The notes beneath the pieces were generated by a model. That model saw nothing but the letters and a program-made list of their open reading frames with translations. It was not told the DNA's origin and ran no database searches. From NCBI GenBank assembly GCA_019308905.1, contig JAFDHF010000015.1, forward strand, positions 4,978 to 68,977: DNA of 64,000 nucleotides, read 5' to 3'. Shown here piece by piece: positions 2,645 to 51,295 of the stretch; position 1 is the first letter of the stretch, and each line of letters starts with the position of its first letter. Source of the stretch: Deltaproteobacteria bacterium (GTDB taxonomy: Bacteria > Desulfobacterota > BSN033 > WVXP01). Made by a program: the position numbers and the translations under genes.

Positions 2645-2699
2645 GTCATTCTGCAGGGGAGATCCTGGGCTCCAGGTCCAACCAGGAGACGGCCTTTTT

Positions 2700-3344: not shown

Positions 3345-3392
3345 AAATTCCCGGAAGTCTCTGAATTAAACCGGAAGATCCATCCATTACGG

Positions 3393-11781: not shown

Positions 11782-11787
11782 TCGGCC

Positions 11788-34412: not shown

Positions 34413-34900
34413 AACCCCCCGAAATCGGCTCGCCGTCCATACCTTTCAGCCCAATATTAGCAAATTGCCTTGGCAAGTCAAGCCATTTTCAGGCGCTCCA
34501 GACACGGGCCAACCAACCGCTTCATTTCCAGCAATGGAGAAGCCCGGGGGAATCAACGGCGAATTTTCAAAATCCTCATTCTCAGCCGCCTCGAAACCAC
34601 TCTCATTGCACCGCGATTCGGATGCGGAACGTCTGGAGGAATCAAACGAAAAATGCGAATCCAGCCGAAAGTTCGTCGGAGATCAGTGTCTTTATCACCT
34701 TGGAGAGATAGAAATCAGCTGTAAGACAAAGTTTCGTCGCGGCATTCGCTGATATTGGAAAAAACAAAACGCTCTGGCATCCGTTCTTGTCACGTCCGGC
34801 GGAAGATAAGCCCATATCGCCATCCACTGGAGTTGACAATATATTATTTTTGATCAAATATATAAAATCGTCAAATAATCTAGAATGGATAGTGTCTCGA

Positions 34901-35629: not shown

Positions 35630-36366
35630 TAAAAGAGATATCTTTTTTCGATTTTTCAAAGACGATACCCTATGAAGAAACCGATAGGTGGTTTTTTGAG
35701 CAGCACTCTCGATTGGCCAAGAAGCTGCCCCATCTGATCAAGTATGTGAGTTACCGAGCCCTCTATCTCCCTGAGAACGATTTCTTCCCTGCCCCTCAGT
35801 TTCAGCGTATGGAGGAGCTCTGGTGGCCGGATAGGAAATCTTTCGAAATAGCTCAGGCCTCTGACGAGAGAAGAGACCTGGCTGAAGACGTGAATGACCC
35901 AAAAAGGGGACCACGGATAGTCAATTTGAGGCGTGCCGTGCTCGAGAAAGAGATAAACGTACTGCATCCCGAAATGACCGGGAATTTTCAGATGACCATG
36001 AATGAGCTCAACGGGAAGCCGCATGTGAAGACTCTTTGGGCTTTTAACTACCTAAATGAGTTGGGCCTGGAGAAAGGTGAAGATTGGTATTTGAACCATC
36101 ATACCCTCGTTGCGGCCAGAAACTTCAACCTCGTGCGGTATGTTACCTGCACCCCGGCCGATGGCCTCGGATTAGATCACGGGTTCGTCCGTTTCACAGA
36201 ACTGTGCTGGCGAGATTGGGAAGCGACCCTAAATGATTTTGAATCTCCCAGAGGACGGGAAGTCCTGGAGGACAACAAGAACGAGAGGGGTATCTGGAGG
36301 TTGATAACCAAAACGGCTCTTCTAGGATACCCTCATGTCGTTGGCAACGAAGCGGTCTTTATTTGA
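35626..36366 (+). CDS. Tandem EthD-like (dimeric alpha/beta-barrel) domain protein, function unknown
   Basis: Two half-repeats, each with an EthD-like signature (ETDRWFFEQHSRLAKKLPHLIKY and GEDWYLNHHTLVAARNFNLVRY). ATGA overlap with the GntR gene. Confidence 0.45.
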   Translation: MIKEISFFDFSKTIPYEETDRWFFEQHSRLAKKLPHLIKYVSYRALYLPENDFFPAPQFQRMEELWWPDRKSFEIAQASDERRDLAEDVNDPKRGPRIVNLRRAVLEKEINVLHPEMTGNFQMTMNELNGKPHVKTLWAFNYLNELGLEKGEDWYLNHHTLVAARNFNLVRYVTCTPADGLGLDHGFVRFTELCWRDWEATLNDFESPRGREVLEDNKNERGIWRLITKTALLGYPHVVGNEAVFI

Positions 36367-36407
36367 AAAGGCTATAGGCCACTCCGGCAAACGAACAGGA
36401 GAAAGAG

Positions 36408-37307
36408 ATGGAGCGCGGCAATACCCGGCGATACGGTAAAGAACGGACACGTGGAAGGGAAAGCCTTATCAAAGTGGCGGCTATTCAAATGGAGCCACAT
36501 ATCGGGGACAAGGAATACAATATTCAAAAACAACTTGACCTTATCGAAAAGGCTGCAAAACAGGGTGCCCGCCTGATGGTTCTTCCCGAACTGGGAAACA
36601 CCGGCTACATATTCAACACCCGGGATGAGGTCAGCGAACTCGCCGAAGAGGTTCCCGACGGCCCCAGCTCTCACGCTTGGATCAAGGCATGCAAGGAGTT
36701 GGGCGTTTACATCTGTGCCGGTATTGCCGAACGTGAAGGCGGAAAATTTTACAACAGTGCTGCCCTCGTCGGGCCGGACGGTTTCATCGGCAAGTATCGA
36801 AAGCTCCATCTCTGGGACGAGGAAAAACTCTTTTTTGAACCAGGAGATCTGGGTATACCCGTTTTTCATCTTCCCTTTGGTCGTGTCGGGATCATGATCT
36901 GTTACGACGGGTGGCATCCGGAAGTCGCCCGCATCTTGGCGTTGCAAGGAGCTGACATTATCTGTGATCCAACATGCTGGGTTTTGGTTCCAGATATCGT
37001 AACCCCGGAAAACCCCGTCTCAGCGTACGTTCATATGGCCAGTGCCCACGTCAACGGGGTTTTCATGATCTGTGCAGACCGTTGCGGGACGGAACGTGAC
37101 TGTGTGTTCCTGGGGAACAGTTGCATTGCGGGGCCCGCCGGCTTTGTCTCCGGTCCTGCCGGTTTTGAAAAGGAGGAGGTTATCGTCGCAGAGATCAACG
37201 TCGTACAGGCCCGTTACCGGCACTGGACCAGTCTGGCAAGTCCGCTGGCCGACCGACGCACGGACGTCTACGATAGCCTCCTAGGTTACCGGCCCGCGGG
37301 AAAATAG
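36408..37307 (+). CDS. Carbon-nitrogen hydrolase (nitrilase superfamily) amidase/nitrilase
   Basis: Catalytic triad context E (VLPELG), K (YRKLHLW) and C (MICYDGW). AGGAGA RBS before ATG 36408. Confidence 0.8.
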   Translation: MERGNTRRYGKERTRGRESLIKVAAIQMEPHIGDKEYNIQKQLDLIEKAAKQGARLMVLPELGNTGYIFNTRDEVSELAEEVPDGPSSHAWIKACKELGVYICAGIAEREGGKFYNSAALVGPDGFIGKYRKLHLWDEEKLFFEPGDLGIPVFHLPFGRVGIMICYDGWHPEVARILALQGADIICDPTCWVLVPDIVTPENPVSAYVHMASAHVNGVFMICADRCGTERDCVFLGNSCIAGPAGFVSGPAGFEKEEVIVAEINVVQARYRHWTSLASPLADRRTDVYDSLLGYRPAGK

Positions 37308-37372
37308 GAATCTAGCCGCCCTCATTTGGAAGACACAAGAGATTCCAACCAAGATGAGGTGAATAATAAACA

Positions 37373-38404
37373 ATGAAGTTTTTCTTAAGCTATTTAAGGA
37401 GAAGAGCCCTTTTCCTGGTACCTCAGCTTTTTGGTGTCCTGCTCATCACCTTTATCGTTGTCCGGATGATTCCAGGCGACCCTGCAAGACTGATAGCGGG
37501 CGGTTTGGCACCGGAAGAGGGGGTAGAACAAATACGGCGCCGGATGGGTTTAACCGGGCCATTGTATCGTCAGTTCATCACGTACGTGACGAATGTCTGT
37601 AAGGGAAACTTAGGTAAGTCATGGTTCACGGGCAACAGGGTCATGGATGATATCAAACTGAGATTGCCGGCGACGCTTGAACTTATTGTCTTCGCTCTTC
37701 TGGTCACTTTCTTGGTGATGTTGCCAGTCGCTCTAAAGTCCGTTTCCGGTGGGAAGGGGCTGATACGCAACATTGCACAAAAGGGACTGTTCGGTTACGG
37801 CATGGCAGCCGGCGCCTTCCCGGATTTCTGGTTGGCTCTCATCCTGGTTTTCGTCTTTTATGCGGTTTTGAAGTGGGTTCCGCCCCCCACAGGCCGGCTG
37901 GACATAGCGATTCTTCCGCCTACGCGTATAACGGGGATGTACGTATTGGATAGTCTGGTCACGGGGAACTGGGTCGCTCTCGTCTCGAGTGTAAAACACC
38001 TGGTACTGCCGGTATTCGTGCTCGCCTTTGTGTACGGCGGGGCTATCCTAAAGGTGGCAATTGTCTCAGCTATGCAAGTCCAAAAATCAGAATTCGTCGA
38101 TTTTGCGAAAGTATGTGCCCTGCCCCCGGCCAAAATCCAGAAATATGTCCATAGAGCAGTCTATCCTTCTGTGGCTACGATGACGGCTGTTGTTTTCGGG
38201 TTTCTCCTGGGTGGGGCGGTGCTTGTCGAAACGGTATTCAGCTGGACAGGATTTGGACAGTATGCGGTTCAGTCAGTTGTCCAGTCAGACTATTTTGCGG
38301 TCCAAGGAGTCGTTTTGGTATCTGCCGTACTGAATCTGTTTATCTATATGCTCGTCGACATGGTCTATTTTTGGGTGGATCCTCGAATAAAGAGCCTTGG
38401 TTGA
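37373..38404 (+). CDS. ABC transporter permease, DppB/OppB-like
   Basis: Binding-protein-dependent transport inner-membrane component in a 343-aa, 6-TM protein. Confidence 0.8.
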   Translation: MKFFLSYLRRRALFLVPQLFGVLLITFIVVRMIPGDPARLIAGGLAPEEGVEQIRRRMGLTGPLYRQFITYVTNVCKGNLGKSWFTGNRVMDDIKLRLPATLELIVFALLVTFLVMLPVALKSVSGGKGLIRNIAQKGLFGYGMAAGAFPDFWLALILVFVFYAVLKWVPPPTGRLDIAILPPTRITGMYVLDSLVTGNWVALVSSVKHLVLPVFVLAFVYGGAILKVAIVSAMQVQKSEFVDFAKVCALPPAKIQKYVHRAVYPSVATMTAVVFGFLLGGAVLVETVFSWTGFGQYAVQSVVQSDYFAVQGVVLVSAVLNLFIYMLVDMVYFWVDPRIKSLG

Positions 38405-38440
38405 AGCCGAAAACGCACGGTCTGTGGAGGGAGGGAATGG

Positions 38441-39361
38441 ATGGATGTCGGGAGCATCTCCATATCTCGCGGATCCTTTGGGGATATTAGAAGGAGCTTC
38501 GTTCTAGTATATCTGAAGCATAACCGTCTACAGTTACTCGCAGCCGGCTATATGATCCTCTCGATCGTTCTCGCCTTGATCGGACCGATAGTTGTCCCCC
38601 ATTCGCCAACGACCCCGGATCCCCGTGCTCAATTACTTCCTCCCTCGTTCCGGTACTTGTTTGGAACAGACATAAACGGCATGTGCATTTTTTCGAGGAC
38701 CGTTTCTGCATTTCGCACGGATTTGTTCATATCGCTATGCGGCGCGCTGCTGGCTCTGGTGGTTGGAGCCCCACTGGGGGTACTCGCGGGTTTTTTCGAC
38801 GGGAGAAAAGGGGGGTATGGTGTTCTGAGTATGGTCATCCTTCGAATCATGGATATCATCCAGGCGTTTCCTATCTTCGTTTTGGGGCTGCTTCTCGTGG
38901 CCGGTTTCGGCCCGAACCCTCTGAACCTAATATTCTTGATCGGCATTACCAACCTCCCCCCTAACCTGCGGCTGGCCAGGTCTGAAGTACTCTCGCTGAG
39001 GGAGAAGTCTTTCGTCGAAGCGGCCAGGGCCGCGGGGAATAAAGAGCTCAGAGTCGCGTTCAGTCATGTAATGCCAAATGCGCTGACACCTGTCATCGCT
39101 TTGCTATCTCTGGTCATGGGGTTCGGCATTCTATTGACCGCAGGCTTGAGTTTCGTCGGCGCGGGGGTAAGGGTTCCGACACCAGAGTGGGGTTCGATGA
39201 TTGCTATAGGAGCGTCGTCGATGATAACCGGCCAATGGTGGCCTGCTTTCTTTCCCGGTCTCGTTATGGGACTCACGATCTTTGCATTTTCGATGATCGG
39301 ACAAGCCATCACCGCCTTACTCGATCCGTTAGAGCGGGTGAAACTCGGGTTTTCACGTTGA
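38441..39361 (+). CDS. ABC transporter permease, DppC/OppC-like
   Basis: 306-aa, 6-TM protein with an EAA-like loop (EAARAAGNKELRV). Confidence 0.8.
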   Translation: MDVGSISISRGSFGDIRRSFVLVYLKHNRLQLLAAGYMILSIVLALIGPIVVPHSPTTPDPRAQLLPPSFRYLFGTDINGMCIFSRTVSAFRTDLFISLCGALLALVVGAPLGVLAGFFDGRKGGYGVLSMVILRIMDIIQAFPIFVLGLLLVAGFGPNPLNLIFLIGITNLPPNLRLARSEVLSLREKSFVEAARAAGNKELRVAFSHVMPNALTPVIALLSLVMGFGILLTAGLSFVGAGVRVPTPEWGSMIAIGASSMITGQWWPAFFPGLVMGLTIFAFSMIGQAITALLDPLERVKLGFSR

Positions 39362-39611
39362 TGCGATTAGGGAGAAAAAACCGCCCGAGATTTGTCAGCG
39401 TGTTATTGAAAGAAAAACAGTTTTCAGAAAGGAGGTGGGCCGAAAGATTTCGAAGTCAATTATCCCCACGGACCATTGGTACGATGCAAGAGACATCAGT
39501 GGCCCATGAAGAAAGGAGGTGACGAGGAAGAAAATCCACGAGGACAAACAGGGATGCTTAGTCGTTTCCCGAAACAAGGGAAGAAATGAAACAAATATGG
39601 GAGGGCAAGAA

Positions 39612-41252
39612 ATGAGATCGAGATCGAAACTAACGAGATTCTTTTTCCTTGGAACGGCCCTTGCTTTGATAGCTGGCCTTACTCTATTACAGGGAGAGGC
39701 AAGAGCCAAGGATACTCTCATCATCGGTGTCCCATCAACACCGACTGGCATTGATCCTGACGTCAATGCCGAACCTGCGGGCTCCGATATCCAGGGAAAT
39801 CTCTACGATTGGGGGATAAGTCTGAAATTTACGCCATCGGCTCAAACCGGAATGGGGGATGTCATGGTCCCAGACTTCTACGCGGAATTACAGCCTGCGT
39901 TGATTGAGAGCTGGGAAGTGGCACCTGACTACAGCAGTTGCACGTTTCACCTGAGGAAAGGGGTGAAAAGTGCCTGGGGGAACGAGCTTACCACGGAAGA
40001 CATTCGCTGGAAGACGGAGAGAAACATCGCTTTGAAAGGTAACGGGGCGTTTATGCTAGGGGTCATCAACTGTGACAGCATGAACAATCTGGAGATAATC
40101 GATAAGTACACATTCAAAGTGACCCCGAACAGACCGGCCCACCTCATAGATGAAATGTGGAGCAACCTCTATTTCCCGATCTGGGATTCAACAGAGGCCA
40201 GGAAACACGCAACAGAGGAAGACCCGTGGGCTCATGACTGGGTCGCCACACATGGTGATGGATTTGGCACCTACTATATCACGGATTGGAAGGCGGGCCA
40301 GCACATAGTTCTAGAAGCCAATCCTCACGCGTGGCGAGGAAAGCCTGCTTTCAAGAAACTCATCTTCAAGGTTATCCCGGAGAGCTCCAGCCGCGTAGCC
40401 ATGGTCAAAGATGGTACCATTGATGTGGCAATGAAACTCTCTCCCAGGGAAATCGATGCGCTGAGAGATGCACCAGGTGTAAAGGTCATTAATCTCCAGG
40501 GCAACCTGGATCTGCATGTTATCACAAACCAGGCATTTGAGCCGTTCAAGAGCAAGCATGTGAGACAGGCTATCCAGTGGGCTATGCCTCAAGACGACAT
40601 CGTGAAACTCGCTTACTATGGACAGGCTATTCCATGGAAGGCCACCATTCCATCGATGTATCCCGGTGTCGATACCTCAGGCTTTCCATACTCCTACAAC
40701 TTGGAAAAAGCCAAAGAGTGCCTGAAGAAAGGTGGGTATCCCGAAGGATTCCAGGTAGATCTGTACTATAACGCCGACTTTGCAGCCCATGAGACGACCG
40801 CGGTGCTGATCAAGGATAGCCTCGCCAAAATTGGCGTCAAAGTCAATTTGCGAAAAACACCGGCCGGCTCCTTTAACGCCGGTGTCTTGGCCAGGAAGTT
40901 CCCCTTTTCCCTCTGGAACGACTATCCGTGCATCGCTGACCCCTTCTACTCCTACATACTCATGTATCTTAGTACCAACTATCACTGTTACGAGAATTAC
41001 AACAACCCTGAGGCCGACCGTATGATGCTGGAAGGCAATGACATCGTCGACACGGAGAAGAGATACGAGTATGCAAAGAAACTGGAAAGGCTGCTACTGG
41101 AGGATGTGCCGGTAGCTTGGGCTGTGGAACAGAACTATACCTGTGCGATAAGGGATAATATCAAGGGGTTCAATTGGGATGTCAGTAACAACGTGAGATA
41201 TGATTTTCTCTTTCCCGCTGCGCAACAGCCGAGTATAGAGATACCCCACTAA
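39612..41252 (+). CDS. ABC transporter substrate-binding protein, family 5 (peptide/opine/nickel type)
   Basis: Start reassigned to ATG 39612, which has a GGGAGGG RBS. Signal peptide plus an SBP_bac_5 fold of about 545 aa. Confidence 0.8.
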   Translation: MRSRSKLTRFFFLGTALALIAGLTLLQGEARAKDTLIIGVPSTPTGIDPDVNAEPAGSDIQGNLYDWGISLKFTPSAQTGMGDVMVPDFYAELQPALIESWEVAPDYSSCTFHLRKGVKSAWGNELTTEDIRWKTERNIALKGNGAFMLGVINCDSMNNLEIIDKYTFKVTPNRPAHLIDEMWSNLYFPIWDSTEARKHATEEDPWAHDWVATHGDGFGTYYITDWKAGQHIVLEANPHAWRGKPAFKKLIFKVIPESSSRVAMVKDGTIDVAMKLSPREIDALRDAPGVKVINLQGNLDLHVITNQAFEPFKSKHVRQAIQWAMPQDDIVKLAYYGQAIPWKATIPSMYPGVDTSGFPYSYNLEKAKECLKKGGYPEGFQVDLYYNADFAAHETTAVLIKDSLAKIGVKVNLRKTPAGSFNAGVLARKFPFSLWNDYPCIADPFYSYILMYLSTNYHCYENYNNPEADRMMLEGNDIVDTEKRYEYAKKLERLLLEDVPVAWAVEQNYTCAIRDNIKGFNWDVSNNVRYDFLFPAAQQPSIEIPH

Positions 41253-41452
41253 TCGCTTACTGCCAGGAGCCACTCATCCGTTCATGCGGGAGGGCACGGG
41301 AGCAACACGCGTTGCTCAAGGCTCTCCCGCAAAAACCGGCATGAGATGAGATTCTCTAACAGGAAGGATCACAAAAGCGCCGGGATCTGGAGTGGGGAAG
41401 CCCGGGGCTCCTATCAGCGTGGCAAGGATCTTCGACTAGGGAGACTGCAAAG

Positions 41453-41917
41453 ATGAGCGAGAACACATTCAAAAAGGAAGTCGTCCATGCAGCTCTGGAG
41501 AGTTTTACGAATTGGGGGAACTCCGGCGTCCAATATGTAGCAAAAGCGTATGGCGACAGGGCAGCCGTCGAGTATCTCCGGGAGTGCGGCTACGCCTTGG
41601 TCAGGCCGGTCGTTGAGAATGCAGGCAAAGAGGGAGAGAAAGTAATAGACGGGTTGGAGATGTTTCACCGTTTGATGGGTAGCCAAGTCAAGGTCGAGGA
41701 GGACGAGGAGAGCAAGCGGCTCGTGGTTGTAAATTGCGCGAGTGGTGACAGAATGAAACGTCAGGGCTTGATTACCCAGCGGAGGAAGGATAACACCCCC
41801 TATTACTGCTATCACTGCACGTTGTGGTGGGAGGAGATGTTGAAGGAAGCGGGTTTCAATTTTGCTTTTCATTATTCTGAAGATGGTCCGTGTATATATG
41901 AATACAAGAAGAGATAA
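41453..41917 (+). CDS. Hypothetical Cys-containing 154-aa protein inserted inside the ABC operon
   Basis: Good coding periodicity and spacing, with a YYCYHC motif. I do not recognise any family. Confidence 0.4.
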   Translation: MSENTFKKEVVHAALESFTNWGNSGVQYVAKAYGDRAAVEYLRECGYALVRPVVENAGKEGEKVIDGLEMFHRLMGSQVKVEEDEESKRLVVVNCASGDRMKRQGLITQRRKDNTPYYCYHCTLWWEEMLKEAGFNFAFHYSEDGPCIYEYKKR

Positions 41918-41991
41918 CATTGGCCATCCGGATAGTTGCCGGGCCGTACCCCTCTGATTTTGAGAGACAAAAGACGAAGGAAGGATAATTT

Positions 41992-42999
41992 GTGGATCAA
42001 GAAATCCTAATTGTGAAAAACCTCAATGCATTTTGTCCTTCTTCTCTCGGGAAAGGCGCACAAAGAATCCTCGACAATGTTAGTATCATCTTAAGCGAAA
42101 ATGATATCCTTGGACTGGTCGGCGAGACCGGTGCGGGAAAATCGGTCCTTATCGACGCAATCGGACGTAACCTAAAGCCCCCCTTGTGGTTCGAGGCGGA
42201 GACCCTATCCGTGAATCTCGACGGGCGCATGGAGAACCTCCTGGACAAAAACGAAGAACAAATGGCAAAGATCTGGGGGAAAGGAATAGCATTTATTCCT
42301 CCCAATGCCAGAGACAGGCTCAATCCCCTTCTGACGATCGGGGAGCAATTTTCCAACATCATTTGCGCTCATTCCCGCCTTTCCCCGAAGGAAGCTCGTG
42401 ATAAGGCGATCGAAACGTTCAGATTGGTTCAGATGCCCGACGCCGAACGAAACTTGGATAGCTATCCCCATGAACTGAGTGGAGGCATGGCACAGAGGGT
42501 TGTCATCTCTATAGCTCTATTCATGTTGCCCAAGGTCTTACTCGCCGACGAGCCCACCATGGGTCTCGACGTAACTATTCAAAAACAGGTTCTCGATTTG
42601 ATGGCAAGACTCCTTGTGGACCTTCAATCAAGCGCCATCATTGCGACACGTGACCTCGGCATCGTGGCTAACTACTGCAAAAGGGTTGCAGTCATGTGCA
42701 ATGGACAGGTCGTTGAACTGGCGCCGGTTCGGGAGTTTTTCAAAAACGCAGTCCATCCTTATAGCCACTACCTTTTGGAGGCCGCGTTCGCCTCTCATGG
42801 AATGACCGCTCGAATAGACTCGAAGAAAGTGGCGACCCGGAGCGAGATGGAAATGAGGAGTGAAAACAGCTGTCGTTTTGCGGGTCGATGCGCCCACGCG
42901 GAAGAGATGAAAGATCTCTGTTGGTCTGTCAACCCACCGGAAACATTCCTCAATCCAGATCACTTTGTGAGATGTCACAGAATTTCGGAGGGTAAATAG
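41992..42999 (+). CDS. ABC ATP-binding protein, DppD/OppD-like with C-terminal oligopeptide-ATPase extension; degenerate Q-loop and H-loop
   Basis: Walker A GETGAGKS, signature LSGGMAQRV, Walker B LLADEPT. The Q-loop position reads FIPPNARDRLNP (no Gln) and the H-loop reads ATRDL (Arg instead of His). Confidence 0.8.
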   Translation: MDQEILIVKNLNAFCPSSLGKGAQRILDNVSIILSENDILGLVGETGAGKSVLIDAIGRNLKPPLWFEAETLSVNLDGRMENLLDKNEEQMAKIWGKGIAFIPPNARDRLNPLLTIGEQFSNIICAHSRLSPKEARDKAIETFRLVQMPDAERNLDSYPHELSGGMAQRVVISIALFMLPKVLLADEPTMGLDVTIQKQVLDLMARLLVDLQSSAIIATRDLGIVANYCKRVAVMCNGQVVELAPVREFFKNAVHPYSHYLLEAAFASHGMTARIDSKKVATRSEMEMRSENSCRFAGRCAHAEEMKDLCWSVNPPETFLNPDHFVRCHRISEGK

Positions 43000-43000
43000 G

Positions 43001-43957
43001 TTGCCGGATATACTAAACGTGGAAAACCTACATAAGCGGTTCCCTCTTAAGAAAGGAGGGGCTGTTTGTGCGGTCAATGGTATCACATTTTCGATCCCCA
43101 AGGGGAAAACTCTCGGACTCGTTGGAGAAAGCGGCTGTGGTAAAACGACAACAGGCCGATGCATCGTTCGTTTGATCGAACCAACGGAGGGCAGGGTCAT
43201 TTATGACGGTAAGGACGTAACTCGAGTTTCCGAGCGTGAGTTTAGAAATCTGAGGTCCGAAATTCAAATTGTCTTTCAGGAGCCTTACGATGCCTTGAAT
43301 CCAAGAAAGAAGGTAAGACAGATACTGGAAGATCCGTTGATGGTGAGTGGGAGATTTGATAAGGTTGAACGTTTGGAAAGGGTGAGAGAAGCTTTGGAAA
43401 TGGTGGAACTGACCGACGACCGTCTGAATAAGTACCCTATTCAGTTAACTCAGGGCGAGCAACAGAGAATCGGAGTCGCCCGGGCTCTTATCACAAATCC
43501 AAAAGTCGTCGTCCTTGACGAACCTACATCATTGTTGGATATACGTTTCCGTGCAGAAATCGTGGTACTTCTGAAAAAATTACAAGAAAAACTAGGCATT
43601 TCTTATCTCTTCATCACCCACGACTTGGTTGTCATATCTGAGCTCAGCCACCGGGTGGCGATAATGTATCTGGGGAGAATCGTTGAAGAGGGACCAGCAC
43701 ACGCAGTTTTCGGATCTCCCCTACACCCCTACACACGTGCCTTACTCGCTGCAGGACTGCTGCCAGACCCAGACCAAGAAAAGGTGGAATTCGTATTGAA
43801 GGGAGAGGTACCGAGCCCTGTGAACCTGCCCGACAACAGATGCAATTTGGCTCCACGCTGTCCACTGGCAAAAACCCATTGTTATGAGTCACTTCCTAAA
43901 CTGCAGGAATTGGGAGAAGGCCACTTTGTTGCCTGCTTTGAAGCTACTCACCCGTAG
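43001..43957 (+). CDS. ABC ATP-binding protein, DppF/OppF-like; degenerate signature motif
   Basis: Walker A GESGCGKTT, Q-loop FQEPYDALNP, Walker B VVLDEPT, H-loop ITHD. The signature reads LTQGEQQR instead of LSGGQ. Confidence 0.8.
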   Translation: MPDILNVENLHKRFPLKKGGAVCAVNGITFSIPKGKTLGLVGESGCGKTTTGRCIVRLIEPTEGRVIYDGKDVTRVSEREFRNLRSEIQIVFQEPYDALNPRKKVRQILEDPLMVSGRFDKVERLERVREALEMVELTDDRLNKYPIQLTQGEQQRIGVARALITNPKVVVLDEPTSLLDIRFRAEIVVLLKKLQEKLGISYLFITHDLVVISELSHRVAIMYLGRIVEEGPAHAVFGSPLHPYTRALLAAGLLPDPDQEKVEFVLKGEVPSPVNLPDNRCNLAPRCPLAKTHCYESLPKLQELGEGHFVACFEATHP

Positions 43958-43987
43958 CAACCCATACCGTGGCGAACAGGAGGGAAC

Positions 43988-44974
43988 ATGAGTGAGATTC
44001 GGAAGATATCAGAAAGCCGCCTCCGAGAGTTGTACAAAAGGCTATTGATGGTTCGCCGATTCGAAGAAAAGGTGGACGAACTGTTCAGAAAGGGGAAAAT
44101 ATACGGGACGGTCCACGTTTCGGTCGGGCAGGAGGCTGTGGCGGTCGGGGTTGCTGAGGCATTACGCGCGGATGATCTCGTGATCGCCACCCATCGAGGC
44201 CACGGCCATTGTTTGATGAGGGGAGCCGATCCCAGGCTGATGATGGCTGAGCTTCTAGGAAAGGCTACGGGGCTGTGCGGGGGCAAGGGCGGATCGATGC
44301 ACATTGTGGATGCGAAGCGCGGAATGTTGGGCGCCATGGGGATTGTTGGTGAAGGGATGCCGATCGCGGCGGGAGTCGGCCTGGCACTCAAGATGCAGAA
44401 AAGGGAGCAGGTCTGTGTCTGTTTTTTTGGAGACAATGCGTCCAACGGGGGGCCATTTCATGAGTCCCTCAATGTATCGGCTTTGTGGAAGCTCCCGGTA
44501 GTCTTCGTCTGTGAGAACAACCTCTACGGTCTGTCGGTTCCGCTGAAAAAGACTTCAGCCGTCGAAGACATTGCCGTCCAGGCAAAAGCCTATGATATAC
44601 CAGGGATTGTAGTGGACGGCATGGATGTTTTGGCTGTATACGACGAAGCCAGGAAGGCTGTGAGAAGGGCCCGCCGTGGAAAGGGGCCGTCGCTTCTGGA
44701 GTGCAAGACGTATCGATTCCTGGGCCACTCAAGAGGCGATCCGGCCTACGGGCCATATCGCTCCAAGGAGGAACTGGTAGCGTGGAAGAAGAGAGACCCT
44801 CTGTTGGTCATTAACAAAGACGGCCGGCTGAGTCCTGAGGATGTTAAGGAAGTCGAAAAAGAAGTTTCCGAAATGATTGAGCAAGCCGTCCGCTATGCAG
44901 AGAAAAGTCCTGAGCCTGATGCCGGAACGGTACTCGAAGACATCTATGTCCAGGAAAGGTGTAGCCCGTCATGA
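43988..44974 (+). CDS. Thiamine-diphosphate dependent 2-oxoacid/acetoin dehydrogenase E1 alpha subunit
   Basis: TPP-binding motif (GGKGGSMHI...GDNASNGG) in a 328-aa protein typical of AcoA/PdhA. Confidence 0.85.
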   Translation: MSEIRKISESRLRELYKRLLMVRRFEEKVDELFRKGKIYGTVHVSVGQEAVAVGVAEALRADDLVIATHRGHGHCLMRGADPRLMMAELLGKATGLCGGKGGSMHIVDAKRGMLGAMGIVGEGMPIAAGVGLALKMQKREQVCVCFFGDNASNGGPFHESLNVSALWKLPVVFVCENNLYGLSVPLKKTSAVEDIAVQAKAYDIPGIVVDGMDVLAVYDEARKAVRRARRGKGPSLLECKTYRFLGHSRGDPAYGPYRSKEELVAWKKRDPLLVINKDGRLSPEDVKEVEKEVSEMIEQAVRYAEKSPEPDAGTVLEDIYVQERCSPS

Positions 44975-45945
44975 GAGAGATCAAATATGCAGAGGCGCTC
45001 CGTGAGGCCCTGGCCGAGGAAATGCGCAGGGATGAAAGGGTTTTCGTATTCGGAGAGGATGTTGAACTCGGCTATGCATTCACCGTGTGCAAGGGATTGA
45101 TCGACGAGTTTGGTCCCGAGCGGGTTTTTGACACACCGATTTGTGAACAGACGATTGTGGGCGTGGCTGTGGGATCCTCCATGATGGGCATGCGGCCGGT
45201 TCCCGAGATCCAGTTCTGTGACCTGCTTCCCCTGTGCATGGATCAGATATGTAATCAGGCGGCCAAGCTTCGTTACATGTCCGGAGGACAGGTCTCTTTC
45301 CCTCTGGTCGTCCGGAGCCCTGCCGGTCGATGGGGGGGATTTGCGGCCCAGCACTCACAGACACTCGATGCCTGGTTCATGAATGTTCCGGGGCTCAAGG
45401 TGGCTGTGCCGGCAACGCCGTACGATGCTAAGGGCCTCTTGAAGGCGGCTATTCGGGATGAAGATCCGGTATTGTTTATCGAACGAAAGCTCCTTTACCA
45501 GATTCCCGGGCCGGTTCCTGAAGAGGAGTACATTGTGTCTTTTGGGGAAGCGAGAACTCATCGGGAGGGTAGCGATCTGACTATTGTGGCTATCGGCCGC
45601 ATGGTGGGGATAGCCTTGGAGGCCTCCGAGGTACTCGAAAGAGAGGGAGTCACCGCGACGGTCCTGGATCCGAGAACCCTCATTCCCCTTGACAAAAAGG
45701 CCATCCTTGAATCGGTGACAAAAACCCATCGAGCCGTGATCGTTGAGGAAGGTCCCAAGACAGGGGGAGTGGGGGGGGAAATCGCTGCCTTGATTGCAGA
45801 AGAGGTCCTGGACTCTTTGGACGCGCCGATCCGCCGGATTGCAGCCTTGGATGCACCGATTCCTTTCAATTCGGCCTTAGAGGACTCTGTTTTCCCGAAC
45901 GCGCACAGAGTGGTCGAAGTCGTCAGGGACTTGATGTCGTTCTGA
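44971..45945 (+). CDS. 2-oxoacid/acetoin dehydrogenase E1 beta subunit
   Basis: Transketolase-like pyrimidine-binding and C-terminal domains; translationally coupled (ATGA) to E1 alpha. Confidence 0.85.
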   Translation: MREIKYAEALREALAEEMRRDERVFVFGEDVELGYAFTVCKGLIDEFGPERVFDTPICEQTIVGVAVGSSMMGMRPVPEIQFCDLLPLCMDQICNQAAKLRYMSGGQVSFPLVVRSPAGRWGGFAAQHSQTLDAWFMNVPGLKVAVPATPYDAKGLLKAAIRDEDPVLFIERKLLYQIPGPVPEEEYIVSFGEARTHREGSDLTIVAIGRMVGIALEASEVLEREGVTATVLDPRTLIPLDKKAILESVTKTHRAVIVEEGPKTGGVGGEIAALIAEEVLDSLDAPIRRIAALDAPIPFNSALEDSVFPNAHRVVEVVRDLMSF

Positions 45946-45995
45946 ACCAGAAGTTCGGTGGGATTGTCTACCAGGGCGGTTGGAAGGGGTACGCG

Positions 45996-47213
45996 ATGGC
46001 AACTGAGGTAACCATACCCAACCTGGGTTACACGATGACCGTAGCCAAGATATTGAGATGGCTGAAATCTGTTGGCGATACGGTGGAAGCCGGGGAAACC
46101 CTGCTGGAGATCGAGACAGATAAAGTGACCTATGGCATAGAGTCTCCAGCCACCGGGATCGTCAAGGCACTCGTTGTGAATGAGGGAGAGGAAGTGCCCG
46201 TGGGAGGCGTCGTGGCGATCGTCGGCGCGGCTGACGAAGAGATCGACGTTGGCCTCTACCGGAACGGTGAAAAGGAGAAGCCGGCCGTCGAGGTCGGCCG
46301 GGCTCGACTACCCCAGGGGGCTCCCCCGACCGCTCCGCGGCCAATGAGGAACGGCGTACCGGCCTCACCATTGGTTAGAAAGGTCGCCAGGGATAAGGGG
46401 ATTGACCTTTCGTTGATTAGGGGATCGGGCCGTTCGGGAAGAATTCGGATGGCCGATCTGGAGAAGTATCTTAGGGAGTTCAAGCAGGCCAGAGCCGGAG
46501 CACCCCCCACGAACGAGCCGGGCGAAATCGCAGAGATTATTCCCATGACACCCATTCGCCGGACCATTGCCCAGCGGCTCTCTCAGAGCTCTCATGACGC
46601 TCCTCATTTCAATCTGTTTACAGAAGTTGACATGGCCGAGGCCATAAAGCTGCGTGAAATCGTGAGAGAGAAGATCGAGTGGAAAACCGGTGTGAAGCTT
46701 TCTCTGAATGACATCTACATCAAGACGGTAGCCGCTGTGCTTGGAGACTATCCCCGTCTCAATGCCAGATTGGAGGGTGATCAGATCGAAGTGTTCAGAA
46801 ACATCAACATCGGTCTGGCGGTGGCTCTTGACGACGGGTTGATTGTCCCAGCCATCGAAAAGGCGGACCGGAAAAGCCTCTGGCAGATTGCCACTGAACG
46901 AAAGGATTTGGTGGAGCGGGCCCGCAACGGCCGTCTGTCCTTACACGAACTGGAGCGAGGAACGTTCACGATATCGAACCTAGGAATGTATGACATTGTC
47001 GCTTTTACCTCCATTCTCAACCCGCCCCAGACCGGTATCTTGTCTATTGGCAAGACCATGGACAGGCCCATTGTCAGAGATGGGTCGGTTGTCATCCGAC
47101 CCATGGTCGCGATGACCCTGGCCGTGGATCACCGGGTCGTTGACGGTGCGGTGGGAGCGCGGTTTCTTCGGGATCTCAAGAGTGCGCTTGAGAATCCCTA
47201 CCTGCTGTTCTGA
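45996..47213 (+). CDS. Dihydrolipoamide acyltransferase E2 (lipoyl, E3-binding and catalytic domains)
   Basis: Lipoyl-Lys motif (IETDKVTYGIESP), a PSBD region, and the catalytic DHRVVDGA. Confidence 0.85.
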   Translation: MATEVTIPNLGYTMTVAKILRWLKSVGDTVEAGETLLEIETDKVTYGIESPATGIVKALVVNEGEEVPVGGVVAIVGAADEEIDVGLYRNGEKEKPAVEVGRARLPQGAPPTAPRPMRNGVPASPLVRKVARDKGIDLSLIRGSGRSGRIRMADLEKYLREFKQARAGAPPTNEPGEIAEIIPMTPIRRTIAQRLSQSSHDAPHFNLFTEVDMAEAIKLREIVREKIEWKTGVKLSLNDIYIKTVAAVLGDYPRLNARLEGDQIEVFRNINIGLAVALDDGLIVPAIEKADRKSLWQIATERKDLVERARNGRLSLHELERGTFTISNLGMYDIVAFTSILNPPQTGILSIGKTMDRPIVRDGSVVIRPMVAMTLAVDHRVVDGAVGARFLRDLKSALENPYLLF

Positions 47214-47221
47214 TTGATTCC

Positions 47222-48616
47222 ATGGATGAGGCTTTGGAGATGAGCAAGAGAGTTGTGATCATCGGCGGCGGTCCGGGCGGATACCCCGCAGCCCTCTTAC
47301 TGGCGCAAAAAGGAGCGAAGGTTACCCTGATCGAGAGGGATAAGCTCGGGGGAACATGCGTGAACAGGGGGTGTATTCCCACCAAAGTTCTGCTTCATGC
47401 CGCAAATCTGATACGGGAAATCAGAAATGCCCAAGAATTCGGCATCACGGCTCGAGATGTAGGGCTGGACTTCAGCCGGTTGAGGAAGCGTAAGGATCAG
47501 GTAGTCGGCTCCCTCGTAAGTGGCGTCGAAAGACTGTGTGAAGCAAGGAAGATCCGGGTCATCAAAGGGACCGGCTTTTTTGAAACACCCCGGAGAGTCA
47601 GGGTCAGGGAGAGTGGCGAACTAATCGAGGGAGATGCGATTGTCGTTGCCACTGGATCGGTTCCAGCGACAGTACCCATCAAAGGAAGCGATGGTGTCGG
47701 TGTTATTGACAGCAACGAGGCGCTGTCAATCGAGAAGATTCCCCCTTCCATCGTGGTCATCGGGGCAGGGTACATCGGATTGGAGTTTGCCCAGATCTTC
47801 CACGCCTTGGGCTCCGGGGTCACGGTACTCGAGTTGTTGAATCAGGTGCTGCCAAACGAGGACGCCGACGTTTCCGGAGCATTGGCTCGGGCTCTCAACC
47901 AGGAGGGTATCAAGATTCGTACGGGAGCGACCGTAAGGGATATATCGGGGATTGAGGGGCACAAGACCGTTCATTACGCTGTTCAAGGAAAAGATTATTC
48001 CATAGAGACTTCTTGCGTATTGATGGCGGTCGGCCGCCGTTCCAATACCGAAGGGTTGGCTCTGGAAAAAGTCGGTCTTAAAACAGAGAATGGTCGGATC
48101 GTGGTCGATAATCAGATGAAGACAACAGTCCCTGGGATCTACGCGGTCGGTGATGTGACCGGAGGTTCAATGCTGGCCCATGTTGCCACGGCGGAGGGTT
48201 TGACTGCAGCGGAGAACATCCTGGGAAAGTCTCAGCCCATGAACTACACAGCGGTTCCTCGATGCATCTACACTTACCCGGAGGCTGCCTCAGTGGGGAT
48301 GACAGAGAGGGAGGCAAGGGAGGCGTACGGGGAGATTCTGATTGGACGTTTTCCTCTTCAAGCCACGGGAAAGGCCCGAATCCTGGGAGGGTTCGGGTTT
48401 GCAAAATTGATCTCCGAAAAGAAGTATAAAAGAATCGTAGGCGTTCATCTGGTGGGCCCGCGTGTCACCGACTTGATCGCGGAGGCCGGCCTTGCAATGA
48501 ATCTGGAGTGCACGGCTGAAGAGATGGCGTTTACGATGCATCCTCATCCAACCCTCAGTGAAATCCTCATGGAGTCAGCTATGCAGATCGAGGGTTACAG
48601 GATCCACAGTACCTGA
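47222..48616 (+). CDS. lpd: Dihydrolipoyl dehydrogenase E3
   Basis: FAD GGGPGGY fold, redox-active disulfide GGTCVNRGCIPTK, NAD fold (VIGAGYIGLE), and a C-terminal interface domain with the HPHPT motif. Confidence 0.85.
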   Translation: MDEALEMSKRVVIIGGGPGGYPAALLLAQKGAKVTLIERDKLGGTCVNRGCIPTKVLLHAANLIREIRNAQEFGITARDVGLDFSRLRKRKDQVVGSLVSGVERLCEARKIRVIKGTGFFETPRRVRVRESGELIEGDAIVVATGSVPATVPIKGSDGVGVIDSNEALSIEKIPPSIVVIGAGYIGLEFAQIFHALGSGVTVLELLNQVLPNEDADVSGALARALNQEGIKIRTGATVRDISGIEGHKTVHYAVQGKDYSIETSCVLMAVGRRSNTEGLALEKVGLKTENGRIVVDNQMKTTVPGIYAVGDVTGGSMLAHVATAEGLTAAENILGKSQPMNYTAVPRCIYTYPEAASVGMTEREAREAYGEILIGRFPLQATGKARILGGFGFAKLISEKKYKRIVGVHLVGPRVTDLIAEAGLAMNLECTAEEMAFTMHPHPTLSEILMESAMQIEGYRIHST

Positions 48617-48636
48617 CCCCTAAACCTTTGAGGTAG

Positions 48637-49578
48637 ATGGCCGTGATCTTGGGGCTGAGCCACATCGCTCTGACCGTCAGTGAGGTGGATGAATCCGTAA
48701 AGTACTACCAAGAGGCTTTTGGTTTCGACGTATTGAGCGATGCGGAAAGAAAAGGAGAGTGGATCGACAAGATCACCGGAATACCGGGTTTTCATACGCG
48801 AACAGTGTACCTGTCGGTGACACCGTACCAACATCTAGAGTTATTCGGGTTCTACCATCCAGAGGCGATTCCTGCGGAAAAAGAAACCGCCCCGCGGGTT
48901 GGAATCTGTTACGGAATCTTAATAACAGGGCGCCTGGAAAGGTTAGCTGGGCTTACAAAGACTGCAAGAGATCGGCCATCACCTGACGTGATCTTGGATA
49001 TTGGAGAAGAGCCCTATAGAGAATGTGAAGTTGTCACACTGCTCGATCCCAATGGGGTGATCCTGAGAGTCGTCGAGGCGGGCAAGGAGGAGACTGATAG
49101 ACAAGACTCGTCTGAAAGGGCACTGCTATACCCGGCGTTGATTGTTGACAACACGGAATCCTCGGTCAGGTTCTACCGGGACATACTGGGATTAAGAATA
49201 GCCAGCCAAGGAGCTCCTATCCCTGAAAGAGACGGCGTGCAGCCACGCAAGTCTGAGATTCCGGTGCGGTGGGTGTTACTGGAGTCCCCTGCCGGCATCT
49301 GTCTGAAGCTGATTCAACCCCTGAACACAGAAATTCTCCCGGCCCGTCCCTGGCAGATGGAACGCATTGGATTCACCCATGTGGCTTTCGCAGTCAAGAA
49401 CCTCGCAGGATACCAGGCAGAGCTGGCAACGAGAAACGTCAATTTCAAATCTCCTCCGCAATCCGTGACTGTTGGACCCCATAAAGGCGGAAAGGTCGTT
49501 TACCTGACCACACCTGAAGGAATAATCTTGGAATTGATCGATAGCCCTCTTACGCTCGAACAAGCCAGCAAGATCTGA
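48637..49578 (+). CDS. Tandem VOC (glyoxalase/bleomycin-resistance/dioxygenase) domain protein
   Basis: Two VOC-like modules (LSHIALTVSEVDESVKYYQEAFGF and FTHVAFAVKNLAGY). Confidence 0.6.
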   Translation: MAVILGLSHIALTVSEVDESVKYYQEAFGFDVLSDAERKGEWIDKITGIPGFHTRTVYLSVTPYQHLELFGFYHPEAIPAEKETAPRVGICYGILITGRLERLAGLTKTARDRPSPDVILDIGEEPYRECEVVTLLDPNGVILRVVEAGKEETDRQDSSERALLYPALIVDNTESSVRFYRDILGLRIASQGAPIPERDGVQPRKSEIPVRWVLLESPAGICLKLIQPLNTEILPARPWQMERIGFTHVAFAVKNLAGYQAELATRNVNFKSPPQSVTVGPHKGGKVVYLTTPEGIILELIDSPLTLEQASKI

Positions 49579-49732
49579 CCATTTGATCGAGAGACCAAAA
49601 AACGGTCACTCGGAAAGAATCGAGCAGCTAGAGCTAACGGGGGTTCAACCGCTCGTCTCGGTAAGAAAGTCGTTAGACCGGGAAGGGCCGAGAGAGAGCT
49701 ACCCAGGACTCACGAGAAAGGAGGCACCGGCG

Positions 49733-51295
49733 ATGGCTAAAGAGCTTTTGGGAAGAGCGGTCGGGAGCACAAGGCGCGGCATCATACCGCCCACGCTCGA
49801 GGAGTTGAGGAGCATTGCCCAGGAGTACCATATGACAATGAGCATTGAGGACCTGGAGGGCTTTGCCGCGGAAATCGAGGGAACCCTCGCATCATACCGG
49901 AGAGTTGGGCAACTCCCCGAGCCCAGGCCCGAGGTCAAGTACCCACGCGTGCCGGGCTATCGTCCCCCCCGAGACGAGAATCCTCTAAACGCATGGTGTT
50001 GGCGATGCTCCATCAAAGGAGCGTCAAGGGGGAAACTCGCAGGAAAGACGATTGCGATAAAGGACAACGTCTGCGTGGCTGGGGTTCCCATGATGAACGG
50101 CTCTGCCATTTTGGAAGGTTTTGTACCAGACGTGGACGCCACGATTGTGACCCGTATCCTCGATGCAGGCGGGGAGATCATCGGCAAGGCCGTCTGTGAA
50201 GACCTGTGCCTGACCGGTGGATCTCACACTTCGGTGACAGGCCCTGTTCTCAACCCCCATAATCCGAGGTACTCAGCAGGCGGGTCATCGAGCGGGAGCG
50301 CTGTTCTGGTGGTTAACGAAGATTGCGACATGGCTATAGGAGGCGATCAAGGGGGGTCTATCCGTATCCCCAGCGCCCTCTGCGGCGCCTATGGCTTGAA
50401 ACCAACCTATGGACTGGTCCCATACACGGGAATCTTCCCCATCGAGAATACCCTGGATCATACCGGCCCCATGGCCAGGACCGTTGAGGATGTTGCGCTC
50501 CTGTTGGAGGTCATCGCAGGCAGGGACCCGCTCGATCCCCGGCAGCGAGAAGAAATCAAGAAGATATCCTACACAAAGGCACTCACCGGAAGCGTAAGAG
50601 ACCTCTCTTTCGGGGTGGTCCGAGAAGGGTTTGGCTGGCCGGAAGGGTCGGGGCCGGATGTGGACCAGGCTGTCAAGGATGCCGCTTTCAGCTTTGAGAA
50701 GCTGGGAGCGAAGGTGAGGGAGCTTTCCATTCCTCTTCATAGAGATGGGATCCATATCTTTTCCCCCATCTTCGTAGAAGGTGCTGCCGCCCAGATGATC
50801 CGCGGCAACGGATTCGGCACAGGCTGGAAGGGTTACTATCCGACAGGTATGTTGAACTACTATGGAAAATCCCGAAAAATGTTGGCTGATAACTTCTCTA
50901 ATACTGTCAAACTGGTCATTCTCGTTGGCCATTACATGTTGACCCGGTATCACGGTCGATACTATGCCAAGGCCCAGAACCAGGTACGCCTGTTGCGAGA
51001 GGCTTATGACCAGGCCCTCCGGGAGGTGGATTTGCTCGTGATGCCGACGGTTGCTCCGGAGGGCAAGGCATTGCCCCTCGTGGAGAATCCAACGCCCGAG
51101 GAGTACTTCCGATTGGGCTGGAGGCACCACTGGAACTGCGCTCCCTTTAACATAACGGGACACCCGGCTATGAATGTACCGTGCGCAAAGTCAGACGGGC
51201 TTCCCATAGGAATGATGCTCATCGGGCGGCAGTTCGGTGATGCAACCGTACTTCGTGGCGCTCACGCTTTTCAGTCCTTGGGCCGGTACGGGTGA
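49733..51295 (+). CDS. Amidase-signature family amidase
   Basis: AS-family Ser-cisSer-Lys motifs (GGSSSGSAVLV, GGDQGGSIRIPSALCG). AGGAGG RBS before ATG 49733; the alternative TTG at 49583 would add 50 aa. Confidence 0.8.
   Translation: MAKELLGRAVGSTRRGIIPPTLEELRSIAQEYHMTMSIEDLEGFAAEIEGTLASYRRVGQLPEPRPEVKYPRVPGYRPPRDENPLNAWCWRCSIKGASRGKLAGKTIAIKDNVCVAGVPMMNGSAILEGFVPDVDATIVTRILDAGGEIIGKAVCEDLCLTGGSHTSVTGPVLNPHNPRYSAGGSSSGSAVLVVNEDCDMAIGGDQGGSIRIPSALCGAYGLKPTYGLVPYTGIFPIENTLDHTGPMARTVEDVALLLEVIAGRDPLDPRQREEIKKISYTKALTGSVRDLSFGVVREGFGWPEGSGPDVDQAVKDAAFSFEKLGAKVRELSIPLHRDGIHIFSPIFVEGAAAQMIRGNGFGTGWKGYYPTGMLNYYGKSRKMLADNFSNTVKLVILVGHYMLTRYHGRYYAKAQNQVRLLREAYDQALREVDLLVMPTVAPEGKALPLVENPTPEEYFRLGWRHHWNCAPFNITGHPAMNVPCAKSDGLPIGMMLIGRQFGDATVLRGAHAFQSLGRYG

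Follow-up and report, generated by a model that had tools for sequence, protein, structure and literature searches.

An Opp/Dpp-family ABC importer with one predicted degenerate ATP site in a deltaproteobacterial genome

The importer locus and its ATPase pair

The stretch of DNA analysed here, called the window throughout, comprises 64,000 nucleotides of a 69-kb contig in the metagenome-assembled genome of an uncultured Deltaproteobacteria bacterium (contig JAFDHF010000015.1 of GenBank assembly GCA_019308905.1, positions 4,978–68,977 of the forward strand). It encodes an ATP-binding cassette (ABC) importer whose two nucleotide-binding domains (NBDs) are the products of adjacent genes, referred to as D-like and F-like (Table 1). 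Judged by its domains, this ATPase pair belongs to the Opp/Dpp family (PepT) of binding-protein-dependent ABC importers. Both ATPases match PF00005 and PF08352 above the cut-offs, and two BPD_transp_1 permeases (B with BPD_transp_1_N, C with OppC_N) and a family-5 binding protein are present in the window. The same permease and binding-protein set occurs at the related loci L001, L002, L085, L086, L107, L108, and L109; at L004, Pfam shows only BPD_transp_1 for both permease calls, which are short.

Both ATPase genes are intact open reading frames (ORFs). The D-like gene starts with GTG behind a ribosome-binding site (GAAGGAAGGA), and the F-like gene starts with TTG one base past the D-like stop codon. 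The best PDB sequence matches of the D-like protein are Mycobacterium tuberculosis OppD and Escherichia coli DppD and OppD; those of the F-like protein are the C-terminal half of M. tuberculosis OppD and E. coli DppF and OppF. An AlphaFold2 (AF2) model of the D-like protein had a predicted local distance difference test (pLDDT) value of 89.2. Its top PDB matches were E. coli DppD and OppD chains, with template modelling (TM) scores of 0.85–0.89 and the C-terminal domain included in the superposition, while DppF and OppF chains ranked below them.

Table 1. Genes and ATPase motifs of the importer locus (window positions unless another locus is named; aa, amino acids).
Feature	Position	Strand	Description
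GntR/FCD regulator	first gene of run (34787–51295)	+	
EthD-like protein	second in run, after GntR/FCD	+	246 aa
C-N hydrolase	between EthD-like gene and permease B	+	
Permease B (DppB/OppB-like)	37373–38404	+	Pfam BPD_transp_1_N + BPD_transp_1
Permease C (DppC/OppC-like)	38441–39361	+	Pfam OppC_N + BPD_transp_1
Family-5 substrate-binding protein	39519–41252	+	Pfam SBP_bac_5
Small 4-Cys + His protein	41453–41917	+	154 aa; between binding-protein and D-like genes
Small ORF at L085	L085 9230–9697		
Small ORF at L086	L086 7775–8239		
Small ORF at L106	L106 2661–3167		
D-like ATPase	41992–42999	+	335 aa; Pfam ABC_tran + oligo_HPY
D-like Walker A	42121–42144	+	GETGAGKS, aa 44–51; Lys50; intact
D-like Q-loop, remodelled	42292–42312	+	FIPPNAR; Pro104 (42301–42303) in place of Gln
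D-like ABC signature	42475–42498	+	LSGGMAQR, aa 162–169; canonical
D-like Walker B + D-loop	42535–42570	+	VLLADEPTMGLD (LLADEPTMGLD); Asp186, catalytic Glu187 kept
D-like H-loop	42637–42660	+	IIATRDLG; Arg220 (CGT, 42649–42651) in place of His
F-like ATPase	43001–43957	+	318 aa; Pfam ABC_tran + oligo_HPY
F-like Walker A	43124–43147	+	GESGCGKT; canonical
F-like Q-loop	43268–43303	+	IVFQEPYDALNP (IVFQEP); Gln93 present
F-like ABC signature, degenerate	43445–43468	+	LTQGEQQR, aa 149–156, for [LF]SGGQ
F-like Walker B + D-loop	43505–43540	+	VVVLDEPTSLLD (VVLDEPTSLLD); Glu174 present
F-like H-loop	43607–43627	+	LFITHDL; His207 present
2-oxo-acid/acetoin-type dehydrogenase E1-alpha, E1-beta, E2, E3	3' of F-like gene	+	
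Glyoxalase-fold protein, then amidase	end of run, after dehydrogenase genes	+	

Three motif deviations meet in one composite ATP site

The ATPase motifs were registered by HMMER/phmmer alignment to solved OppD, DppD, and DppF structures, among them M. tuberculosis OppD (8j5q) and DppD (8wd9), and their coordinates were checked by translation. Column for column, 'giafiPPnardrlnp' of the D-like protein against 'aigtvFQdpmsaltp' of M. tuberculosis OppD places Pro104 at the position of the Q-loop glutamine, and 'iiaTRDlgiva' against 'liiTHDlgvva' places Arg220 at that of the H-loop histidine. The D-loop of the D-like protein reads MGLD instead of SALD. In the F-like protein, the alignment of 'ypiqLTQGEqqrigvaral' with 'ypaeFSGGQkqrigiaral' locates the signature, and the D-loop is SLLD instead of SALD. 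A first-pass annotation of the locus, made from the sequence alone, had reported a D-like ATPase without a Q-loop glutamine and with an H-loop arginine, its other motifs being intact, and an F-like ATPase in which only the signature is degenerate; the alignments, including that of LTQGEQQR to FSGGQKQR, agree with both descriptions. No displaced Gln or His able to substitute was found near the motifs in the alignments of either ATPase. Gln119 was considered as an alternative Q-loop glutamine of the D-like protein and rejected, as canonical proteins have an aligned glutamine besides that of the Q-loop.

Each ATP site of an ABC protein is composite, with Walker A/B, Q-loop, and H-loop contributed by one NBD and the signature by the other (PMC7756269). 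It is because of this geometry that all three deviations fall into one site, which combines the D-like Walker A/B, Q-loop, and H-loop with the F-like signature. The other site, in which the F-like Walker A/B, Q-loop, and H-loop face the D-like LSGGM, contains every consensus residue. The earlier prediction of one crippled and one competent site is supported by this arrangement.

Both ATPases end in four-cysteine domains (42862–42999 and 43826–43957). Cys294, Cys300, Cys310, and Cys328 of the D-like C-terminal domain are invariant in 38 sequences, and the cysteines of the F-like domain follow the pattern C-x5-C-x6-C-x17-C.

The degenerate site is conserved in a small clade

Conservation was counted in protein clusters at 90% identity, the D-like set being 91 of the 120 best database matches. 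The clade so defined reaches down to 47% identity for its 91 D-like clusters and to 56% for its 97 F-like clusters. Glutamine never occurs at D-like position 104 (P 50, S 30, T 7, C 2, A 2, Q 0), and the residues that follow are nearly fixed (Asn105 in 88, Ala106 in 89, and Arg/Lys107 in 89 of the 91 clusters). Arg220 is present in 91/91 clusters; the 29 more distant matches in the same list all have His there, and the Q-loop of 26 contains FQ. The residues associated with ATP binding and hydrolysis are kept as well: Lys50 in 89/89 members covering the position, Asp186 and Glu187 in 91/91 each, and an A-loop Tyr/Phe in 72 of 86. The signature [LF]SGGM occurs in 91/91 clusters, and in the D-loop Met190 is found in 86 and Gly191 in all 91.

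The F-like signature is equally well conserved. LT[QA]GE is present in 97/97 clusters, with Thr150 in 95, Gln151 in 96, Gly152 in 97, and Glu153 in 96 of them, and Gln93, Glu174, and His207 of the consensus site are each found in 97/97. Leu178 of the SLLD D-loop occurs in 90 of the 97 clusters, whereas the 23 distant matches outside the clade all have Ala.

The pairing of the two genes was tested in both directions, through loci reached by their D-like proteins and through loci found by a DNA pattern for the F-like signature. An LTQGE gene lies directly downstream in 9/9 loci picked through the D-like gene. A scan of the metagenome collection with the DNA pattern, which covered P-[IV]-[QE]-LTQGEQQR only, returned 19 loci, and in all 16 readable ones a Gln-less D-like gene with Arg220 lies directly upstream; of the remaining three, two are truncated and one is an orphan copy (L094). 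Over both directions, the degenerate D-like and F-like genes are adjacent in 25/25 readable loci, so that the survey of homologues for co-variation proposed in the first-pass annotation found it to be strict. At L094, the LTQGEQQR gene (2449–3495, – strand) is not preceded by a D-like gene and is aberrant at its N-terminus, where Walker A reads GPSGSGKT. We left it out of the pair count as a probable orphan or rearranged copy.

Both ATPase genes are under purifying selection. The ratio of non-synonymous to synonymous substitution rates (dN/dS) against the nearest relative, L086, is ~0.08 for the D-like and ~0.10 for the F-like gene, with ranges of 0.07–0.08 and 0.05–0.10, respectively.

The background set comprised 138 NBDs encoded at 80 unrelated Opp/Dpp-type loci in GTDB genomes, the loci having come from a genome scan for relatives with conserved-peptide patterns. 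None of the 138 had an H-loop Arg or had truly lost its Q-loop Gln; apparent Q-loop deviations were alignment shifts around an intact FQ, and the Walker B Glu was present in all 138. This fits the earlier suggestion that such asymmetry is uncommon in Opp/Dpp importers. The patterns of the genome scan also matched ordinary OppD genes, and the best listed matches were canonical proteins of 39–42% identity. Among the matches listed, none was a clade member from a cultured organism, an absence that, given such unspecific patterns, does not imply that none exists.

At 50% clustering, the clade is reduced to one representative (P0030) among the 150 best of 1.8 billion proteins, and fused two-NBD proteins fill the top of that list. 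The combination of Pro/Ser104, Arg220, and LTQGE is a single small, rare clade. Within it, the degenerate arrangement has the conservation of an old, fixed feature, in which the replacement residues are as conserved as the catalytic ones. The invariance of the substituted residues, together with the clade-specific changes in both D-loops (MGLD and SLLD, where more distant relatives have SALD), marks the site as one apparently remodelled under selection and not decayed.

Relatives with other asymmetric sites

Three fused two-NBD proteins of 546–553 aa (P0085, P0116, and P0118) are degenerate in the same composite site. Their N-terminal half has a Q-loop without Gln (LIGTNAK) and keeps LSGGMAQR, xGLD, and the H-loop His; its Walker B, LADDATLGLD, has Glu replaced by Asp, the classical route to a degenerate site. 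The signature of the C-terminal half is LTAGEQKR. In a rough neighbour-joining tree calculated without support values, these proteins are sister to the clade.

P0244, also a fused protein, combines a Gln-less Q-loop (IAFIASNAK), the signature LSVGM, and a retained His in its N-terminal half with LSAGQ in the C-terminal half; this could represent either an intermediate form or one more variant of the asymmetry. At L011, L013, L014, L020, and L024, the F-like signature is LDGGRRQR for LSGGQ, and the adjacent D-like partner is fully canonical. One of these loci belongs to the cultured Eisenbergiella tayi DSM 26961 (L024, F-like gene at ~11037–11981). The asymmetry of the LDGGR loci is of a third kind within the Opp/Dpp family, and a milder one; asymmetric sites may be more widespread in this family than the literature suggests.

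Genomic neighbourhood

The importer appears to lie inside a catabolic operon. The genes on the + strand between 34.8 and 51.3 kb follow each other with short gaps and resemble one operon or supra-operon; a promoter and terminator scan of 34.3–44.2 kb gave no signal above the shuffled expectation. The catabolic gene set around the transporter, consisting of the GntR/FCD, EthD-like (246 aa), C-N hydrolase, E1-alpha/E1-beta/E2/E3, glyoxalase-fold, and amidase genes, is common to the closest relatives L085, L086, and L001. More distant clade members lie in other clusters, with corrinoid methyltransferase/hydantoinase, CoA-transferase/acyl-CoA dehydrogenase, or arginase/FGGY kinase genes.

The guanine-plus-cytosine (GC) content is 0.49–0.53 from the GntR gene to the F-like gene (34001–44000) and 0.56–0.63 in both flanks, with 0.56 in the dehydrogenase genes downstream. 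The low GC of the GntR-to-F-like stretch would fit a transporter module acquired by horizontal transfer. Where clade members carry an organism name, the labels of their metagenome-assembled genomes (MAGs) are Deltaproteobacteria, Actinomycetota, Candidatus Poribacteria, and Clostridiales. Taken together, the varied MAG taxa, the differing catabolic neighbourhoods, and the GC content below that of the flanks suggest that the ATPase-transporter unit is a mobile module.

Permeases, binding protein, and substrate

In E. coli, DppB pairs with DppD (PMC12136057), and by analogy permease B would be expected to pair in the membrane with the D-like ATPase and permease C with the F-like ATPase. The coupling-helix (EAA) region of permease B (aa ~240–266) reads SEFVDFAKVCALP, compared with the common QDYIRTARAKGLS, and this holds across the clade; the corresponding region of permease C is canonical (FVEAARAAG). 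Thr100, Ser101, and Asn103 of E. coli DppD, just after the Q-loop Gln, contact the DppB coupling helix (PMC12136057). In a hand alignment of the Q-loop segments, their equivalents here are Asp/Glu108 and Arg/Lys109. The two sets of changes hint weakly at a remodelled, co-evolved interface between the D-like ATPase and permease B, an argument weakened by several ordinary loci that also have short or variant coupling-helix motifs in permease B.

The binding-protein ORF as listed begins with GTG at 39519 and encodes 577 aa, compared with 546 aa in homologues. The start is probably the ATG at 39612, where the signal-peptide-like MRSRSKLTRFFFLGTALALIAG begins. The nearest solved relatives of the binding protein, all of weak similarity, are AgaA (6hlx), two unnamed peptide-type binders, and HbpA; AccA ranks lower and is also weakly similar. 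AgaA is an opine binder and HbpA a heme/peptide binder. The neighbouring enzymes are amide- and nitrile-cleaving and 2-oxo-acid-oxidising, and the substrate is likely to be a non-peptide organic nitrogen compound.

A small four-cysteine protein upstream of the D-like gene

The first-pass annotation had drawn attention to an extra small Cys-rich ORF between the binding-protein and ATPase genes. The ORF and its position stand, while 'Cys-rich' overstates its composition, with 5 Cys in 154 aa. By its conservation we regard it as a real gene: homologues are 93% identical in L086 and 82% in L085, with dN/dS of 0.03–0.07, and Cys95, Cys119, His121, Cys122, and Cys147 are invariant among them. Only five clusters of this protein occur in a collection of 5.8 billion proteins. 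In the 4/4 loci of known context, the small ORF lies directly upstream of the degenerate D-like gene; more distant clade members, L001 among them, do not have it. As an accessory gene it is confined to the nearest relatives and does not belong to a clade-wide module.

No Pfam or NCBIfam family match to the small protein was found. Its AF2 model (pLDDT 78.9) gave only moderate Foldseek matches to the PDB. The lowest E-values belonged to de novo designed proteins, with a query TM score (TMq) of ~0.40. The natural match with the highest TM score was the zinc-containing sensor domain of the phenol sensor MopR (TMq 0.54–0.57), and bet3/Trs31 proteins were also among the matches (TMq ~0.4). The MopR sensor and bet3 share the V4R fold, and the matches suggest for the small protein a V4R-like small-molecule-binding fold with a probable metal site. 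We regard it as a candidate small-molecule-binding accessory, linked to the ATPases by gene position only.

Possible mechanisms of the asymmetric ATPase pair

The reading we favour, and consider probable, is that ATP binds to the degenerate site without fast hydrolysis and that the F-like site alone drives transport. ATP would still bind to the degenerate site, since this site retains its Walker A Lys, both Walker B acids (Asp and Glu), and, in most members, the aromatic residue of the A-loop. Hydrolysis at this site would be very slow or nil, and the bound nucleotide could serve as a long-lived ATP 'glue' that aids closure of the NBD dimer. The F-like site would then provide the single hydrolysis that resets each transport cycle, at a cost of about one ATP per cycle instead of two. 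We infer the catalytic loss from the sequence and from the engineered H-loop mutants HisP H211R and MalK H192R, which have <2% of their ATPase activity left (PMC6222333). In E. coli DppABCDF, ATP hydrolysis persists when the catalytic Glu is mutated in either DppD or DppF (PMC12136057), so that a single live site would be viable in the Opp/Dpp family. The sister fused lineage, which impairs the same site by a Walker B Glu-to-Asp change, also speaks in favour of a dead site.

Several observations weigh against this reading. The catalytic Walker B Glu187 is kept in every D-like cluster, so some hydrolysis is possible, and loss of this Glu has been called the hallmark of degenerate sites (PMC7544095). 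The lost Q-loop Gln is a ligand of Mg2+ and the gamma-phosphate, and its absence could weaken ATP binding altogether. Furthermore, the strictly kept new residues (Asn105-Ala106-Arg107 and Arg220 in the D-like protein, Thr150-Gln151-Glu153 in the F-like protein, and the D-loops MGLD and SLLD) point to a positive function beyond that of a simple 'dead site'. We tentatively entertain, as a doubtful but serious idea, that the pocket is purpose-built to be non-hydrolytic and is not a decayed remnant. The clade residues would then either hold ATP in place, perhaps with no Mg2+ contact of the usual kind, or act as a sensor of a different ligand or of the ATP/ADP ratio. If so, the transporter would be a natural binding-protein-dependent importer with a cost of one ATP per cycle and with gating by the cellular energy state, and the small four-cysteine protein could be a cytoplasmic partner of the D-like subunit in the closest relatives.

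Other explanations seem less probable. The retention of Lys50, Asp186, and Glu187 throughout the clade bears on two of them in opposite ways. It would suit a transporter in which both sites are active, Arg220 and Glu187 catalysing by a slightly different chemistry and LTQGE clamping the gamma-phosphate, so that the asymmetry would be cosmetic; the second signature Gly (Gly152) is invariant, the Ser-to-Thr change is conservative, and the H-loop His is dispensable in some ABC proteins, such as Pdr5 (PMC6222333, PMC7756269). We nevertheless think this improbable, given the near-complete loss of activity that the same His-to-Arg change causes in the type I importers HisP and MalK (PMC6222333). In addition, three motifs of one site are altered together in every member while the other site is untouched, and the sister fused lineage inactivates that same site by its own Glu-to-Asp change. 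Conversely, the conserved residues speak against a D-like subunit that binds no nucleotide at all and acts as a structural partner for permease B, lending its LSGGM to the F-like site while contacts of Arg220 and Arg107 replace the ATP 'glue'. The missing Q-loop Gln, which helps to hold Mg-ATP, would agree with such a role, and the near-invariant basic Arg107 and Arg220 and the acidic Glu153 across the interface could make nucleotide-independent contacts. However, the Walker A motif (G-x4-GK[ST]), the Walker B Asp-Glu pair, and mostly the A-loop aromatic residue are conserved as in working NBDs, which is hard to explain without ATP binding, and we judge this explanation unlikely.

A sequencing or assembly error, a decaying pseudogene, or a mis-registered alignment is so improbable that we set it aside. 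A single base change (CAT to CGT) would suffice to turn the H-loop His into Arg. Yet the same residues recur in 91 and 97 independent D-like and F-like clusters from many samples, dN/dS lies at 0.05–0.10, the motifs are registered against solved structures, and the structure model is confident. Mis-registration and sequencing error were the grounds on which the first-pass annotation expected that it might fail, and neither held, as the substitutions are fixed in ~90–100 clusters.

Significance of a probable natural single-site importer

How many ATP molecules are used per cycle of binding-protein-dependent import is a long-standing question, as is the role of a second, non-hydrolysing site. 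Importers have so far been probed with engineered mutants, such as HisP H211R, MalK H192R, and the Glu-to-Gln variants of DppD and DppF. The clade described here would offer a natural single-site version, stable in evolution, in a family whose structures are well described (Opp/Dpp), and thereby a defined system in which to ask whether one hydrolysis per cycle suffices for import. Its pattern is unusual in that the Walker B Glu is kept, while the Q-loop Gln is lost and the H-loop carries Arg. The clade also allows principles derived from TAP, CFTR, and TM287/288 to be tried on importers. Finally, the annotation 'oligopeptide/dipeptide ABC transporter ATP-binding protein' masks functionally distinct subfamilies that are tied to non-peptide catabolic clusters.

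Comparison with known systems

The ABC_tran and oligo_HPY architecture of both ATPases is that of E. coli DppD/DppF and OppD/OppF (8z1v–8z21), M. tuberculosis OppD (8j5q), and the DppD NBD of T. tengcongensis (4fwi), and canonical Opp/Dpp pairs have the same D-then-F gene order, two permeases, and family-5 binding protein. The spacing of the four C-terminal Cys of each ATPase is similar to that of the [4Fe-4S] ligands of E. coli DppD/DppF, C284/290/297/315 and C293/299/306/323 (PMC12136057); M. tuberculosis OppD likewise has a four-Cys [4Fe-4S] motif in this domain. Kept in both ATPases as putative [4Fe-4S] ligands, these cysteines indicate that the complex is probably redox- and oxygen-sensitive. 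Canonical pairs differ in having two consensus sites, with both DppD and DppF hydrolysing ATP (PMC12136057), whereas one site is degenerate here. The neighbourhoods here also suggest non-peptide substrates, in contrast to the Opp/Dpp peptide systems.

Among named systems, the NCBIfam cut-offs for OppD, DppD, OppF, DppF, NikD/E, GsiA, YejF, SapD/F, and CntD/F were not reached. The best full-coverage score of the D-like protein was 189.6 bits against a cut-off of 575 (OppD subfamily); its top-ranked match, NF043079, scored 202.6 bits against a cut-off of 740 and was a partial match only. The F-like protein scored at best 336.3 against 408 (DppF subfamily). With scores below these cut-offs, neither ATPase counts as an ortholog of a named system.

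One consensus and one degenerate composite site are also found in TAP1/2, TM287/288, TmrAB, BmrCD, CFTR, and MRP1, where, as here, the H-loop and the partner signature are altered. ATP binding without fast hydrolysis, the role of the degenerate site in TAP/CFTR-type proteins (PMC7756269, PMC3971661), would by analogy be expected here too. However, those proteins are type IV exporters or channels and not binding-protein-dependent importers. Loss of the Walker B Glu, their hallmark, is absent here, and loss of the Q-loop Gln and the His-to-Arg change are not usual in them. In Pdr5, function was lost once all motifs had been repaired. The likeness to TAP1/2 and CFTR drawn in the first-pass annotation thus holds for the presence of one degenerate site; with the Walker B Glu kept in 91/91 clusters, it is a functional analogy only.

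Among bacterial importers, one dead site has been predicted from sequence in the CUT2-type RbsA and NupO (PMC11466899). These belong to another ABC subfamily, with two fused NBDs and no oligo_HPY domain, whereas the NBDs are encoded by separate genes here, and their degenerate half is without the Walker A Lys, which is present here as Lys50. The fused P0085, P0116, and P0118 differ likewise in having their NBDs joined. HisP H211R and MalK H192R carry the identical H-loop change in type I importer ATPases. Those mutations are engineered, single, and homodimeric, while the change here arose naturally, is fixed, affects only one subunit of a heterodimer, and comes with further conserved changes. 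We found no description of a degenerate site in Opp/Dpp importers in the literature, subscription-only papers aside. Degenerate sites are thus well known in export pumps and apparently undescribed in Opp/Dpp importers, and by its motifs the transporter described here is an Opp/Dpp importer that belongs among the degenerate-site ABC transporters, with an unusual pattern of its own.

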